DNA of 64,000 nt from Candidatus Latescibacterota bacterium (GTDB lineage Bacteria; Latescibacterota; UBA2968; UBA8231): assembly GCA_965221775.1 (NCBI GenBank), contig CBDCSU010000006.1, forward strand, positions 640,001 through 704,000, written 5' to 3'. The translations under genes were made by a program, and so were the position numbers. The notes beneath the pieces were generated by a model. That model made no database searches. It was not told the DNA's origin and worked only from the letters and a program-made list of their open reading frames with translations. Positions 2,806 through 7,593 of this stretch are shown one piece after another; the first letter of the stretch is position 1, and each line of letters starts with the position of its first letter.

Positions 2806-2907
2806 GAGTGCAGCCGGGAGAGTGGTTGGACCATGCGGTGACGCCGGAGCTCATGGCCGATGACGGGCGGGACCGCCCGGGGTGTTGCACTGGCCTGGGC
2901 GGTGATT

Positions 2908-3115
2908 GCGCGATGAACGGAAGAGACGCGGAGCCCTGAGGCTGTTGCGCTGAGGGGCTGCCGGTGCTGAGTCGCTGTGCCGCTGAGTCGCTGAGCGGCT
3001 TGACCGGACGTTAGGTTGTCAATCCCCTGAGACCGCGTTTCAGTGCGGGTCGATCCTGGGCTATGCGCCGTCGCCGGCGCAGTCGCGCTTGCTCCCCTGT
3101 CTCTCCCGTCCGCGC
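2908..3115 (-). ncRNA. Putative structured RNA with an internal CAGC repeat array, downstream of the DIP1984-family gene
   Basis: Closing stem 3115-3091 pairs with 2934-2908; GCGA tetraloop hairpin at 3064-3081; repeat array at 2936-2998. Confidence 0.65.
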
Positions 3116-3120
3116 CGTCC

Positions 3121-3654
3121 CTACCGCTCGTCTGCGTACTCCACCTCGACCTCGAAGGAGGCGGCGCGCAGCCGCCGGTTGAGCCGGCGGAACTCGACCC
3201 GCGCCTCGTCCAGGCGGACGCGGCAGTCCTCGTAGGGCAGCTCGTTCTCCTCGACGATGTCCCGCTCCTCCTTGTGGAAGATGCGCTCGTACGCCGAGTC
3301 CACGACCTGCGTGTGCAGCTCCCCCAGGCGCTCGTTGAGCGCTTTGCGCGTCTCCAGCGCCTCGGTGAGGCTCAGGTCATCGCCCTCGTGCTCAAGACGG
3401 TGCTCGAAATTGGCCCGCTGGATCGCCGCGTTCAGCTTGCGCCGCTTGTACTCCAGGGCGCGCAGCTGCTCCCGGGCCTTGGAGACGCTGAAACCGGGAG
3501 CCGGCCGGCGCGAGGAGTCGCTGTCCCGGGAGAACAGGCCGCGGTTCTGGCGCGACTCGGGCAGGCAGTCCCGAAGGGTCTTGATGCGGGCATCGTACTC
3601 GCCGCGCAGTTCCAGGGCTTCGTAGAGCCGGACGGTCTTTCGGGCTTCGGTCAT
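3121..3654 (-). CDS. DIP1984/DUF6847-family coiled-coil protein
   Basis: N-terminal LxEALxLR, KLNAAIQRAN, a second LTEAL repeat, C-terminal AASFEVEV; strong SD (GGAGG). Confidence 0.75.
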   Translation of the reverse strand: MTEARKTVRLYEALELRGEYDARIKTLRDCLPESRQNRGLFSRDSDSSRRPAPGFSVSKAREQLRALEYKRRKLNAAIQRANFEHRLEHEGDDLSLTEALETRKALNERLGELHTQVVDSAYERIFHKEERDIVEENELPYEDCRVRLDEARVEFRRLNRRLRAASFEVEVEYADER

Positions 3655-3736
3655 CCCTCGCCTCCTTCCTCTGCGTCAGCGGGAGGAGTCGAAGGTCGAG
3701 GGGGGTCAGAACAGTGGCAAGGGGGGTGGGGAAGGG

Positions 3737-4113
3737 CTATCCAGGGTGAGGTATGCCACCCCCGGAGCATTCCCCCAACCACTCCTGGATCGTCGTCTTG
3801 ATCCACTCCCACTCGGCGTCTTCCAACATGCGAGACATCGGTTCCTCGTCGGCGTCGTCGAAGAAGCTGAGGTTCTGGCGATGGCGCACAGCTTCATGGC
3901 CGACAGGTCGGCCAAGGATGCTACCGGGCTGGGTCCCTCGGGCCAGTCTTCGAACGGACCAAGAAAGTCGAGATCGACGGAGAGCCGGTGGCCGAGGTGA
4001 AGGGCCACGGCAGTGCCGCCTGCCAGGTAGAACCCCTCCTCGGACAGTGGCGGCCCCAGTTGTCCGAGGACCTCCCTTTGTGCGGGAGACAGGCATTCAG
4101 GGTGCCAGTTCAA
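3737..4113 (-). pseudogene. AbiEii-family nucleotidyltransferase toxin, internally deleted and frameshifted
   Basis: FYLAGGTAVALHLGHRLSVDLDF and DLSAMKLCAI in one frame, LSFFDDADEEPM..W tail in another; only ~125 codons in total. Confidence 0.8.
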
Positions 4114-4481
4114 GCCCGCGTCCTCCGCCCCCAGACCCCCGCCCGCGCCGCCCGCACCCACTCCTCCACCTGGTCCGCCGGCAGATCGAGGATCAGCTCC
4201 CAGAACCGGATCCGCTTGGCGTCCAAGCCGCGGCACCGGCGCCGGATCAGCCACTGGCGCAACTGGTCCGGCTCGACCCGCTCGCGCAGCCAGGTCACCG
4301 AGTCCCAGTCGCCGGCGCCCAAGATGCGGGCGATGACGAAGTCGCGGTCGGCGGGCCAGGAGAGGTCCTCGAAGCGGTGGTCCCAGAACAGGTCCCGCAT
4401 CGACTCGGGCAGTCCCGCCTCCGGCTCCTGGTCCCGGCCGGCGGACGCAGGCGGTCCAGCGTGTGGGTCAGCCGTCCCCAC
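4110..4481 (-). CDS. DUF6922-like antitoxin partner of AbiEii
   Basis: LFWD..DL...DFVIARIL.GDW motif; stop overlaps the AbiEii start. Confidence 0.75.
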   Translation of the reverse strand: MGTADPHAGPPASAGRDQEPEAGLPESMRDLFWDHRFEDLSWPADRDFVIARILGAGDWDSVTWLRERVEPDQLRQWLIRRRCRGLDAKRIRFWELILDLPADQVEEWVRAARAGVWGRRTRA

Positions 4482-4765: not shown

Positions 4766-6526
4766 TCACTCCCGCACCGCCAAGTGAAGCTCCCGGAGCT
4801 GCTCGGCGGACACCTCCCCCGGGGCGCCCATGAGCGGGTCCTGCGCATGCTGGTTCATGGGGAAGGCGATCACCTCCCGGATGTTCGGTTCGTCCGCCAG
4901 CAGCATGACGATGCGGTCGATGCCGGGGGCGATGCCGCCGTGGGGAGGGGCGCCGAAGCGCAGGGCGCGGATCATGCAGCCAAACCGGCGCTCCACCTCC
5001 TGCCGCGGGTACCCGGCGATCTCGAAGGCCTTGTACATGATGTCGGGCCGGTGGTTGCGGATGGCGCCGCTCGACAGCTCGACGCCGTTGCAGACGATGT
5101 CGTACTGGTACGCCTTGATCTCCAGCGGCGGCTGCGTCTCCAGGGCCTCCATCCCGCCCTGCGGCATGGAGAAGGGGTTGTGCGAGAAGGCGGCATGGTC
5201 CCGCTCCTGGTCCCACTCGTACATCGGGAAGTCGACGATCCAGCAGAACTCGTAGCATCCCTGCCGCCGCAGTTCGAGCCGGTCCGCCAGATGCAGGCGC
5301 AGCCGTCCCGCCAGGGTCGCCGCCTCGTCCGGAGGTCCGGCGATGAGGAGGATCGCCGACCCCGGCTCGGGCGAGCACTCCTCGGCGATGCGTGCGATCG
5401 TGCTCTCTTCCAGGGCCGCGGCGATCGATCCGGTGGCCCGGCCCCCGGGGATGAGCCAGGCCAGCCCCTGGCCGCCGGACTCTCTGACGAAGTCCTCGAG
5501 ACCGTCGAAGAACGAGCGCGGACGGACCTCGAGACCGGGCACGCACAGGGCGCGGACGACCCCACCTTCGGCGACGATCTCCCGAAACAGCCGGAACGAG
5601 GAATCCGCGAAAATGTGTGACAGGTCCCGGATCTCGAGCCCGAAGCGCAGGTCCGGCTTGTCCGTGCCGAAGCGCAGCATGGCCTCGGCGTGCGAGAAGC
5701 GCGGAAAGGGCTTCCCGGTCACCTGCCAGTCGCTGAACTCGTGGAACAGACCGGAGAACAGCTCCTCCACGACAGCGAAGATGTCCTCCTGCTCGACGAA
5801 GGCCATCTCCATGTCGCACTGGTAGTGTTCCCCGGGGGAGCGGTCGGCGCGGGCATCCTCGTCGCGGAAGCAGGGCGCGATCTGGAAGTAGCGGTCGAAG
5901 CCGGAAACCATCAGCAGCTGCTTGAACTGCTGCGGCGACTGCGGCAGCGCGTAGAAGCGGCCGGGGTAGAGCCGGCTCGGCACGAGGTAGTCGCGGGCGC
6001 CCTCGGGCGAGCTGCTGGTGAGCACGGGCGTCTGGAACTCGGTGAAGCCCATCTCCGACATGCGCCGCCGGATGCTGGTGATCACCTCCGAGCGCAACTG
6101 GATACGCCGGTGCAGCCCTTCCCGGCGCAGGTCCAGAAAGCGATAGGACAAGCGCATGCTCTCCCCCGTCTCGGCCTCTTCCGCCACCGAAAAGGGGAGC
6201 GGCTCCGCCGGCGACAGCACTTCCATCTCCCCCACGGCGACTTCCACCTCTCCCGTCTCCATCGCCCGGTTGATGGACTCTGGCGAACGCTCCCTCACCT
6301 CTCCCTCGACGCGGACCACCGACTCGCGGGGGACCCTGGCCGCGGTGGCCGCGGAGTCGTTCTCCGGCGAGACCACGAGCTGGGTGAGGCCGTAGTGGTC
6401 GCGCAGGTCGAGGAACAGCACGCCCCCGTGGTCCCTTCGGCGGTGTATCCAGCCGCTCAGGCGAACGCTCCGGCCGGCATGGCGCCGGCGGAGCTCGCCG
6501 CAGGTGTGAGTGCGATAGCGGTGCAT
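4766..6526 (-). CDS. aspS: Aspartate-tRNA(Asp/Asn) ligase, probably non-discriminating
   Basis: [15 protein letters not shown] (His typical of non-discriminating enzymes), [38 protein letters not shown]. Confidence 0.97.
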
Positions 6527-6560
6527 GGCAGTGCTTCTCCCAGGTTGTCGGACGGGCACG

Positions 6561-6723: not shown

Positions 6724-6752
6724 AGTGTAAGGAGGGAGCCGGACTTCGTCAA
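6724..6752 (-). promoter_or_regulatory. Sigma70 promoter for leader-aspS
   Basis: TTGACG(6752-6747)-N17-TACACT(6729-6724). Confidence 0.8.
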
Positions 6753-7135
6753 TCAGGCTCCTTCAAGTGCCCCCGAACCTGTTCAAGCAAGGCCTCCACA
6801 AGGGCGAGCGCGGCCTTGCGATCGATCGGTTCGGCACCCGGGTCGAGACCCCCGTACCGGAACTCGACGGCATACGGCGTGTACAATGTCAACTCTCGGT
6901 GAGCCTCCACGTCGACATCGCGCCCGGCGAGCAGATTCACCAGGGTCTCGAGATTGTGGGTCAACGGATAGGTTTCGCCCAGCAGTGCGAGCCAGGCCTT
7001 GAAGGACTTCTCAGCCGCTTGCTGAAGGTGGAATCCATACGACTCATCCGGTGCTCCCGCCGTCATGTTCCGGAGCGTGAGGACATCGCGTTCAGCCGCT
7101 CCGAGCAGCATCCGCGCGCACTTAGGGTCGCTCAT
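6749..7135 (-). CDS. HEPN-domain toxin
   Basis: GFHLQQAAEKSFKA, YPLTHNL, YAVEFRY. Confidence 0.9.
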   Translation of the reverse strand: MSDPKCARMLLGAAERDVLTLRNMTAGAPDESYGFHLQQAAEKSFKAWLALLGETYPLTHNLETLVNLLAGRDVDVEAHRELTLYTPYAVEFRYGGLDPGAEPIDRKAALALVEALLEQVRGHLKEPD

Positions 7136-7457
7136 AGAGCACCTTCCCTTCCCGCAGCGCGCGCGCCAGAACGTGGTTGAGGGAGTCGCGCCAGTAGTCG
7201 ACCTCGTCCCGGGTATAGACCAGGATGTCGGCGGAGACCGGAAAGTCCGCCAGGACCTTGTAGAGTCTGACCATCTCCTTGTGCCGGCTTCGTTTCCCGT
7301 CGAAGGGCTCGGACTCGACGACCACCAGATCGACGTCCGATTCCTCCCGCTCCTCGCCACGTGCACGGGACCCGAAGAGGATGACCCTCTCGGGATCGAC
7401 TTCCTCGACAACGGCCGTGACCATCCGGCCAATGAGTGATTCCGTGACGCCGGTCAT
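7122..7457 (-). CDS. Minimal nucleotidyltransferase (MNT) antitoxin
   Basis: ILFGSRARG..SDVDL; ALREGKVLY; overlaps the HEPN gene. Confidence 0.9.
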   Translation of the reverse strand: MTGVTESLIGRMVTAVVEEVDPERVILFGSRARGEEREESDVDLVVVESEPFDGKRSRHKEMVRLYKVLADFPVSADILVYTRDEVDYWRDSLNHVLARALREGKVLYERP

Positions 7458-7593
7458 TGCTCTACCCATTCGATCGGCGCACACCGCCGATCCTCTCTCG
7501 CGGCTTAAGTTACCCCAATCAACGCAGCAATGCCCACCCTGGCCTCGCTCACCGATCCGGCCGTGGTCGGGCGCCGCCCCGGCTTCCCGCCCC

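Follow-up and report, generated by a model that had tools for sequence, protein, structure and literature searches.

We describe here a gene and an adjoining structured RNA found in a stretch of 64,000 nucleotides (nt) from a Candidatus Latescibacterota bacterium (assembly GCA_965221775.1, contig CBDCSU010000006.1, positions 640,001 to 704,000 of the forward strand), hereafter the window. The gene, on the minus strand, encodes a protein of 177 amino acids (aa) that belongs to a divergent subfamily of the DUF6847/DIP1984 fold, and the RNA, of about 208 nt (3115-2908, minus strand), begins 5 nt past the stop codon of the gene (TAG, 3123-3121), carrying within a folded core an array of short, regularly spaced motifs. 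Comparison across many loci reveals a conserved RNA structure, strict linkage of this structure to the gene, periodicity of the array, and two classes of the array motif. At odds slightly better than even (about 0.55), we consider the gene and the RNA a two-part accessory module making a ribonucleoprotein. A sequence-only reading of this DNA had supposed the pairing to be undescribed, and no account of it was found among Creative Commons PubMed Central papers and bioRxiv preprints (supplements excluded), where neither the core-sequence string nor the DUF6847/DIP1984 terms led to a relevant paper; the matching passages of one genome-language-model preprint make no mention of the RNA. The features of the module in the window are given below, with the basis for each in brackets.

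3121 to 3654, minus strand: gene for the 177-aa protein, divergent DUF6847/DIP1984-fold subfamily (open reading frame (ORF) list, Pfam, AlphaFold2 (AF2) model, Foldseek, VIA)
2908 to 3115, minus strand: whole structured RNA in its window fold, bounded by the two strands of the closing stem (strand reading, single-sequence fold)
3115-3091, minus strand: 5' strand of the closing stem P1, GCGCG-G-ACGGGAGAGAC-AGG-GGAGC (faces the P1 3' strand; covariation)
2934-2908, minus strand: 3' strand of P1, GCUCC-GC-GUCUCUUCCGU-U-CAU-CGCGC (same basis as the 5' strand)
3064 to 3081, minus strand: hairpin P2, UGCGCCG-GCGA-CGGCGCA, with a GNRA (GCGA) loop (7 of 7 pairs with double changes)
3031 to 3051, minus strand: hairpin P3, GACCCGC-ACUGAAAC-GCGGUC, with an 8-nt CU-GNRA-like loop (helix 5 covariation)
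3013 to 3028, minus strand: short hairpin P4 (GGG...CCY) with a YUGAY-type loop (helix 6; weak in the window itself)
2998 to 3010, minus strand: junction CGUCCGG-N-AAGC preceding the array (nearly invariant columns of alignment A4)
2941 to 3000, minus strand: periodic single-stranded array of eight AGC (spacings of 8, 8, 8, 8, 9, 8 and 8 nt; consensus pairing absent)

A conserved RNA structure and its linkage to the gene

The stop codon, the closing stem, the GNRA hairpin, the GACCCGC/GCGGUC hairpin and the array were all located where the sequence-only reading had placed them. The covariance model R1 matches the window at 2903-3118 with 142.7 bits, its single match in this genome (G000), in which the RNA stretch is present in one copy. 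Folding of the single sequence results in a minimum free energy of -97.7 kcal/mol (z -2.73), equalled by 1 of 200 shuffles, and reproduces the closing stem and the GNRA hairpin; taken alone, this fold is only suggestive. The comparative evidence is provided by alignment A4, consisting of 36 diverse class A sequences (less than 88% alike), whose consensus has six helices and 27 pairs, with 95.3% of the cells paired, 140 cells with double changes, and 20 of the 27 pairs changed on both sides, bearing out the claim of a structured RNA 5 nt past the stop codon. None of 500 shuffles attains any of the five measures, a count that, with related sequences, is not a probability, and when the partners are slid by 1 to 3 columns, the paired fraction falls to 36-48%; these slid controls and the many pair types observed (e.g., AU, GC, UA, and CG at 15-237) agree with the shuffles. 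Helices 1 and 2, which make up P1, are 97.6% and 100% paired, with double changes in 9 of 12 pairs, P2 shows them in every one of its pairs, helix 5 (P3) is 88.9% paired, with double changes in 2 of the 3 pairs modelled, and helix 6 (P4) is 92.6% paired, also with double changes in 2 of 3. G-U pairs are frequent (e.g., 9 at 118-130, 6 at 42-56) and would be mismatches if the other strand were read, placing the structure on the strand of the gene. The element is a conserved RNA structure, and not a matter of chance.

The closing stem of about 22 base pairs (bp) proposed earlier is indeed present in the window, but only about 11 bp are conserved across the family (GGAGAC/GUCUCC and GGAGC/GCUCC, the 5' side being represented in the window by GAGAC at 3103-3099 and GGAGC at 3095-3091), and the outer 10-11 bp are lineage-specific yet covarying. 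Along with the P1 core, the strand AAGYGCGA, the sequence UAGCCCAG after P2, and GUCCGG-N-AAAGC ahead of the array are nearly invariant. The P2 loop is of the GNRA type in 32 of the 36 rows of A4, mostly G-Y-G-A, with GCAA, GAGA, and GUAA in single rows, while in the remaining four rows (L081, L089, L091, and L096) the loop region is longer and built differently. In most rows CU-GNRA-NA is the sequence of the P3 loop, and the length of the RNA with flanks is tightly kept, at 213-232 nt. No family of Rfam 15 matches the minus strand of 2908-3115 (E up to 10), or six other loci (E up to 0.1), and ARAGORN recognizes nothing tRNA-like or tmRNA-like in nine loci. The region is non-coding: every one of the three frames is interrupted by stops in 25 of 36 sequences of class A and in 16 of 18 of class B.

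The linkage to the gene was followed in the genome_contigs set, scanned at one genome per species, which yielded 80 loci under about 15-20 phylum labels, used as deposited; kin are not independent, and thus all counts given here overstate the number of independent observations. In 77 of these loci, nhmmer detects the RNA directly 3' of the gene and on the same strand, and R1 adds one more (L103), for a total of 78, so that the regions downstream of homologues do retain the closing stem and the periodic array. The two misses are represented by a contig that ends inside the gene (L105) and by a truncated gene (L099), and in two of the 78 (L029 and L050) the RNA is interrupted by contig ends; in another two, L078 and L082, a deletion took the 3' end of the gene along with the 5' half of the RNA. 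Protein matches occur in 16 of 61 related genomes, and all ten near-full-length homologues (57-97% identity) are followed by the RNA after their stop codons. Of the 151 genomes of the window's phylum, 25 contain an R1 match, one per genome, and all 22 strong matches (at least 140 bits) adjoin the gene. The orientation of the RNA is always that of the gene, in both the 80 loci and the metagenome set described below, and in no judgeable locus was a full-length gene of the subfamily seen without the RNA. Stop codon and P1 core are separated by a median gap of 12 nt, and by at most 25 nt in 84 of 98 loci; as the RNA starts this close to the stop, it is most likely co-transcribed as the 3' end of the gene.

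A few loci deviate from this arrangement. One example is L011 (G007), in which the gene reads through into the RNA, resulting in a 196-aa product with an unrelated tail and suggesting a frameshift or an assembly error. Another example is presented by L017 and L051, in which an insert of about 165 nt separates the stop codon from an intact RNA. A third example is a group of five loci (L197-L199, L201, and L207), in which a cassette of about 840 nt (e.g., L198 2092-2776), encoding a TumE-family toxin and a 103-aa partner, lies between the gene and an intact RNA, with the original last codons of the gene still attached to the RNA, and with a HepT-like gene upstream. That the RNA has stayed intact behind this cassette argues for a role beyond a cis effect on the neighbouring stop codon. 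As to the distribution, three contigs carrying the module are labelled archaeal (L050, L074, and L100), but they are short (2.3-3.1 kb), and L074 shares an identical RNA with L061 (Desulfobacterota label, Desulfatibia), making presence in Archaea doubtful; these contigs are likely mis-binned. No match to the module was found in plasmid, phage, and IMG/VR viral-contig collections, which are poor in the lineages concerned.

The periodic array, its two motif classes and the protein

A divergent class of the module, class B, was collected using two proteins, L103 and L106, 35-41% identical to the protein of the window, as metagenome queries, resulting in 61 loci. In 47 of these, R1 detects the RNA behind the gene. 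Among the 14 others, ten break off at the gene match or only a few bases from it, three are short N-terminal fragments, and in the last, L177, a toxin-antitoxin-like cassette follows the gene, and the contig stops 328 nt later. Judged by eye, L177 contains at 770-1094 an antitoxin-like small ORF and, after it, another small ORF. In class B RNAs the core sequences are retained and one hairpin is added, and of their 29 predicted pairs 18 show double changes; about 60 nearly invariant junction nucleotides are common to both classes, despite the low identity of the proteins. In L198 (around 2990-3010), two hairpins stand in place of the P4 region, and one, reading GGGUUCGAUUCCC, resembles a tRNA T arm; ARAGORN calls no tRNA at this hairpin.

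In the 36 non-redundant class A arrays, AGC recurs at a lag of 8 nt 54 times, versus 1.3 in shuffles, and in class B arrays UAC recurs at a lag of 7 nt 57 times, versus 1.0, the class B motif being UUAC every 7-8 nt. The cross motifs, AGC in class B and UAC in class A, are at background. The sequence-only reading had taken CAG(C) and its spacing to be conserved, of which the spacing stands, and the conserved core is AGC rather than CAGC. In the window, AGC starts at 3000, 2992, 2984, 2976, 2968, 2959, 2951, and 2943, and Tandem Repeats Finder recognizes only the most regular part of the array (2966-2995, period 8, 3.8 copies). The array is poor in G compared to the rest of the RNA, 20% versus 35% in class A and 13% versus 31% in class B, and no consensus pairing is predicted within it in A4. 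The array motif follows the protein clade, a pattern easier explained by recognition by the protein. Pairing of the P3 loop with the array (CUG/CAG, GUAA/UUAC) was considered and rejected, since the loop varies in both classes (GAGA, GAAA, GUGA, GCAA, and GUAA) while the array motif is fixed.

The protein had been assigned to the DIP1984 family, and it is better described as a distant relative: the match to Pfam PF20935 (DUF6847) is above the cut-off (42.8 bits vs 27, E 6.4e-11, in two stretches), but the match to NCBIfam NF038048 (DIP1984_fam) is below it (40 bits vs 70). Both halves of the protein match the same C-terminal half of the Pfam profile (positions about 60-140 of 141), suggesting an internal duplication, and no end-to-end match exists for the window protein, in contrast to two canonical DUF6847 proteins, L107 and L108 (175.9 and 173.6 bits), which span positions 1-141. 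The genes for the latter two, from the same phylum, have no such RNA downstream, restricting the pairing to one subfamily, so that a general rule of a DIP1984 gene plus an RNA holds within this subfamily and fails for the canonical genes. About 60-150 nt after these two canonical genes there is a shared stretch ending in GGGUUCGAGUCCCAC, similar to the 3' half of a tRNA, in which ARAGORN calls none, and which may be an integration-site remnant. Annotation mentions, as far as these go, give some Acinetobacter plasmid DIP1984/DUF6847 proteins the label 'septicolysin'.

The AF2 model (predicted local distance difference test, pLDDT, of 89.9) consists of helices and two beta-hairpins. Its sole clear fold match is 3kdq, a structure from C. 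diphtheriae, identified by both Foldseek (E 2.6e-4, template modelling score 0.59/0.66) and VIA (Z 12.4, root-mean-square deviation 4.1 over 151 residues), the next VIA match having a Z of 8.9 and the other rows being generic helical hairpins (Z at most 8.9); no nuclease-like fold was found by either. The ESM Atlas search gave only DUF6847-like and 'Siphovirus Gp157' look-alikes, and the 549 relatives of the protein, all without a name, are about 60% identical across phyla. A four-copy prediction returns a symmetric pairwise interface with a score of 0.66, versus 0.00 for the best control, in runs that share at least 87% of contacts and with a partner pLDDT of at least 82. The mark for self-association that this score passes is attained by 20 of 30 proteins solved as one-chain pairs, as against 1 of 23 single-chain structures, and was calibrated on two copies and with an alignment other than that of the four-copy job; as the relative 3kdq was solved with four chains, the pass may reflect the memory of the model. 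The predicted interface leaves free a conserved basic helix (R71, R72, K73, N75, Q79, and N82). A 252-aa ORF on the plus strand (3043-3801), antisense to both the gene and the RNA, is probably spurious, as antisense frames cluster only because the gene itself is conserved.

Genomic surroundings and decay

When the 1767 ORFs from the 80 loci were clustered, no family was shared beyond close kin, except for the gene and its antisense frames, and thus no third partner was detected in these loci. In the 35 loci in which neighbours were listed, these include BrnT/CopG, ParE, HigB, PemK, five PIN proteins, UPF0175, and AbiEii, as well as IS200-type and DDE transposases and a TOTE protein, and toxin-antitoxin or mobile genes are found nearby in about half. 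The genes downstream vary in family and strand; a riboswitch or leader of the next gene was rejected. One candidate for a third component was a hypothetical protein of about 380-400 aa, encoded after the RNA in loci of the PVC group (L086 4773-5912, L092 2285-3421, L093 4674-5882, and L095 1066-2205). Pfam recognizes nothing in it, PADLOC produces one chance-level match (Specificity_I, E 0.043), and its 621 relatives are about 65-70% identical across phyla. This candidate was rejected: the gene is missing from three other module-bearing genomes and occurs without the RNA in 4 of 7 loci that have a near-full-length homologue. It is another unexplained, highly conserved family.

Three weak R1 matches, in G006, G035, and G128, are remnants of the RNA, and in two of these genomes (G006 and G128) the protein gene is absent. 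In G006, of the same genus as the window, the last 60 nt or so of the RNA are kept, beside the same downstream DUF5916 gene, and a HEPN-like gene abuts the remnant. These remnants, together with R1 matches in 25 of 151 genomes of the phylum, show the module to be dispensable and decaying in some genomes. Upstream of the module in the window (3706-4481, minus strand), a DUF6922 ORF (4110-4481) and a 182-aa ORF overlap, the match of the latter to the 238-position AbiEii profile being confined to positions 6-44; together these look like an AbiE-type pair with a truncated toxin gene. Beyond an aspartyl-tRNA-synthetase-like ORF (4766-6559), two overlapping small ORFs (6749-7484, minus strand) resemble, by eye, a nucleotidyltransferase/HEPN toxin-antitoxin pair.

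Readings of the module and their meaning

The strict linkage, the lack of a third partner, the motif that follows the protein clade, the G-poor unpaired array, and the predicted self-association lead us to propose that several copies of the protein would bind one array. The RNA folds into a compact core, composed of the closing helix P1, the GNRA hairpin P2, hairpins P3 and P4, and the nearly invariant junctions, and this core holds out a G-poor single strand of about 60 nt with about eight motifs of 3-4 nt at a spacing of 7-8 nt. The protein, with its two helix/beta-hairpin repeats, would self-associate, and its copies would occupy the array, the folded core providing a second contact or an assembly point. 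Such modules are non-essential, occurring once per genome, amid toxin-antitoxin and mobile genes, and decaying in some lineages. From the genomic patterns and the structural predictions combined, we infer the transcription of the module, the binding of the RNA by the protein, their stoichiometry, and the biological role. The oligomer with one repeat per subunit put forward in the sequence-only reading would gain indirect support from the strict co-occurrence, from the different array motif of the divergent clade, and from the predicted self-association, while the scaffold, regulator, or antitoxin roles named there are putative.

Among known systems, the mode of action proposed here comes closest to that of TRAP or HutP with their spaced triplets, or to that of a multivalent sponge RNA. 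TRAP and HutP are small self-associating proteins that read regularly spaced short RNA motifs, TRAP as an 11-mer and HutP as a 6-mer ring. The RNA described here likewise displays short motifs regularly spaced on an unstructured strand, and its partner is small and predicted to self-associate. However, the protein is related to theirs in neither family nor fold (DUF6847 is the only Pfam match of the window protein, with none to TrpBP or HutP), the interface is predicted to be that of a symmetric dimer and not of a ring of 11 or 6 subunits, the motifs recur every 7-8 nt, and the array is part of a folded RNA of about 200 nt located 3' of its own gene, not of a regulated operon's 5' leader. The sponge RNAs CsrB and RsmZ possess many sites for one protein, and Rsr-Y RNA, SmpB-tmRNA, and OLE-Oap combine a structured RNA with a dedicated protein. 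They resemble the module in having either a many-site RNA or a structured RNA with a protein encoded nearby, but no Rfam match of these kinds was obtained here, the partner protein is unrelated, and the motifs are on a single strand and not in hairpin loops. The canonical DIP1984/DUF6847 proteins (3kdq) share with the window protein the common fold and the Pfam match above the cut-off, and they differ in the points given above, namely the doubled C-terminal half of the profile, the score below the NCBIfam cut-off, and the downstream RNA.

A number of observations weigh against the ribonucleoprotein reading. The predicted oligomer has a dimer interface rather than the form of a ring offering one subunit to each repeat. 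The switch of motif from one class to the other may be one evolutionary event and would then be weak evidence for covariation of array and protein, and within class A, A-N-C-like repeats of a looser kind occur in the PVC group and in L091 and L094. Conservation is higher in the RNA core than in the protein, which could mean that the RNA works mainly via something other than the protein. In one genome (G166; L158 1224-1505), an intact RNA (140.5 bits) is found beside a gene of only 93 aa, from which an in-frame deletion removed residues from about 41 to 123, and which could represent either a gene in decay or a minimal version of the protein. The insertion of the TumE cassette indicates that adjacency is not required, leaving co-transcription less than certain. 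Finally, the evidence for expression is weak, consisting of one RNA-library contig of a relative, from one coral metatranscriptome (X20), which covers 2914-3070 with parts of the stretch uncovered; its ends, strand, and level are not derivable, and contigs of this kind do not prove transcription.

The alternative that survives best, possible and yet clearly less probable than a ribonucleoprotein of accessory function, is a type III-like toxin-antitoxin or abortive-infection pair, in which a growth-inhibiting RNA binder would be countered by a cis-encoded RNA acting as a multivalent decoy, with AGC and UUAC keeping the pairs orthogonal. By analogy, the genomic behaviour of the module does resemble that of toxin-antitoxin modules. 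Like ToxIN, CptIN, and TenpIN, it combines a protein and a repetitive RNA, stands alone, one per genome, with a patchy distribution across phyla among toxin-antitoxin genes, even as the protein retains about 60% identity; the mobile and toxin-antitoxin genes near half of the 35 loci, the HEPN/MNT-like and AbiEii-like genes near the module in the window, the protein-less RNA remnants, and the lack, in judgeable loci, of a full-length gene without the RNA all agree with this proposal. The type III antitoxins consist of tandem repeats of about 34-40 nt (typically about 36 nt) located upstream of the toxin gene. In the module, in contrast, the order is reversed, the RNA being downstream of the gene, and the only tandem repeat has a period of 8 nt and is placed inside a folded scaffold, whose elaborate conserved core exceeds the needs of a decoy. 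The ToxN/AbiQ, CptN, and TenpN families are absent from the Pfam scan, PADLOC models give nothing for the window protein at E up to 0.01, and two relatives match only PD-T4-2_B, at E 0.026. The negative results for a nuclease-like fold and for plasmids, phages, and viral contigs also argue against such a pair. A more specific, and somewhat more doubtful, version is a conflict module in which dimers of an RNA-binding effector would be held inactive on the cis-encoded scaffold by the eight-site array acting as a barcode, the barcodes being orthogonal, and the invariant core would sense or engage a universal cellular component that triggers release.

It seems slightly less probable still that the RNA is a cis-acting element of the 3' untranslated region of its own mRNA, a stabiliser, terminator, or autoregulatory site that would form no lasting particle and have no function in trans. 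In 84 of 98 loci the RNA begins at a distance of 5-25 nt from the stop codon, and, given the footprint that a ribosome extends beyond a stop codon, a terminating ribosome would cover the 5' strand of P1; a T run of at least 4 is found within 14 nt after P1 in 26 of 98 loci. Such a run is absent from the remaining 72, no intrinsic terminator (a GC-rich hairpin and a U run) is called between 2500 and 4600 in the window, and a simple terminator was rejected on these two grounds. An RNA of about 200 nt, with its pair of GNRA-type loops, its invariant junctions, and its periodic array, exceeds by far what a terminator or stabiliser needs, and the RNA persists intact behind the inserts of about 840 and 165 nt.

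Even less likely is the possibility that the function resides in the RNA, as a ribozyme, ligand binder, or mimic engaging a universal host component, with the protein as no more than its chaperone or helper. The junction nucleotides shared between the two classes speak in its favour, as do the two GNRA-type loops, which commonly hint at tertiary packing. The lack of an Rfam match to known ribozyme or riboswitch families, the negative ARAGORN results, and the change of the array motif with the protein clade speak against it. The last alternative, a DNA-level repeat, the end of a mobile element, a recombination site, a short coding region, or chance, is largely refuted: a long inverted repeat does flank about 180 nt, and toxin-antitoxin cassettes are inserted beside the RNA, but the single full-length copy in the window genome and the one match in each of 25 genomes, on which a dispersed repeat or miniature inverted-repeat transposable element was rejected, the strand-specific G-U pairs, the stops in three frames, and the constant orientation with the gene do not fit it.

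In conclusion, if the ribonucleoprotein reading is true, a widespread structured RNA class would join the few bacterial RNAs that have a dedicated protein partner, with the module occurring mostly in uncultivated lineages, under the phylum labels counted above. Its design, a conserved folded core presenting a ruler-like array of short motifs, is without a described counterpart, and it would provide a first clue to the function of one branch of the DUF6847/DIP1984 fold, whose structure dates from 2009 and has never been explained. The AGC and UUAC variants, each with its own proteins, would represent a natural pair for a specificity swap. If it proves to act in conflict, the module would represent a new type of protein-RNA system, and if not, it would serve as a compact model for the reading of regularly spaced single-stranded RNA.

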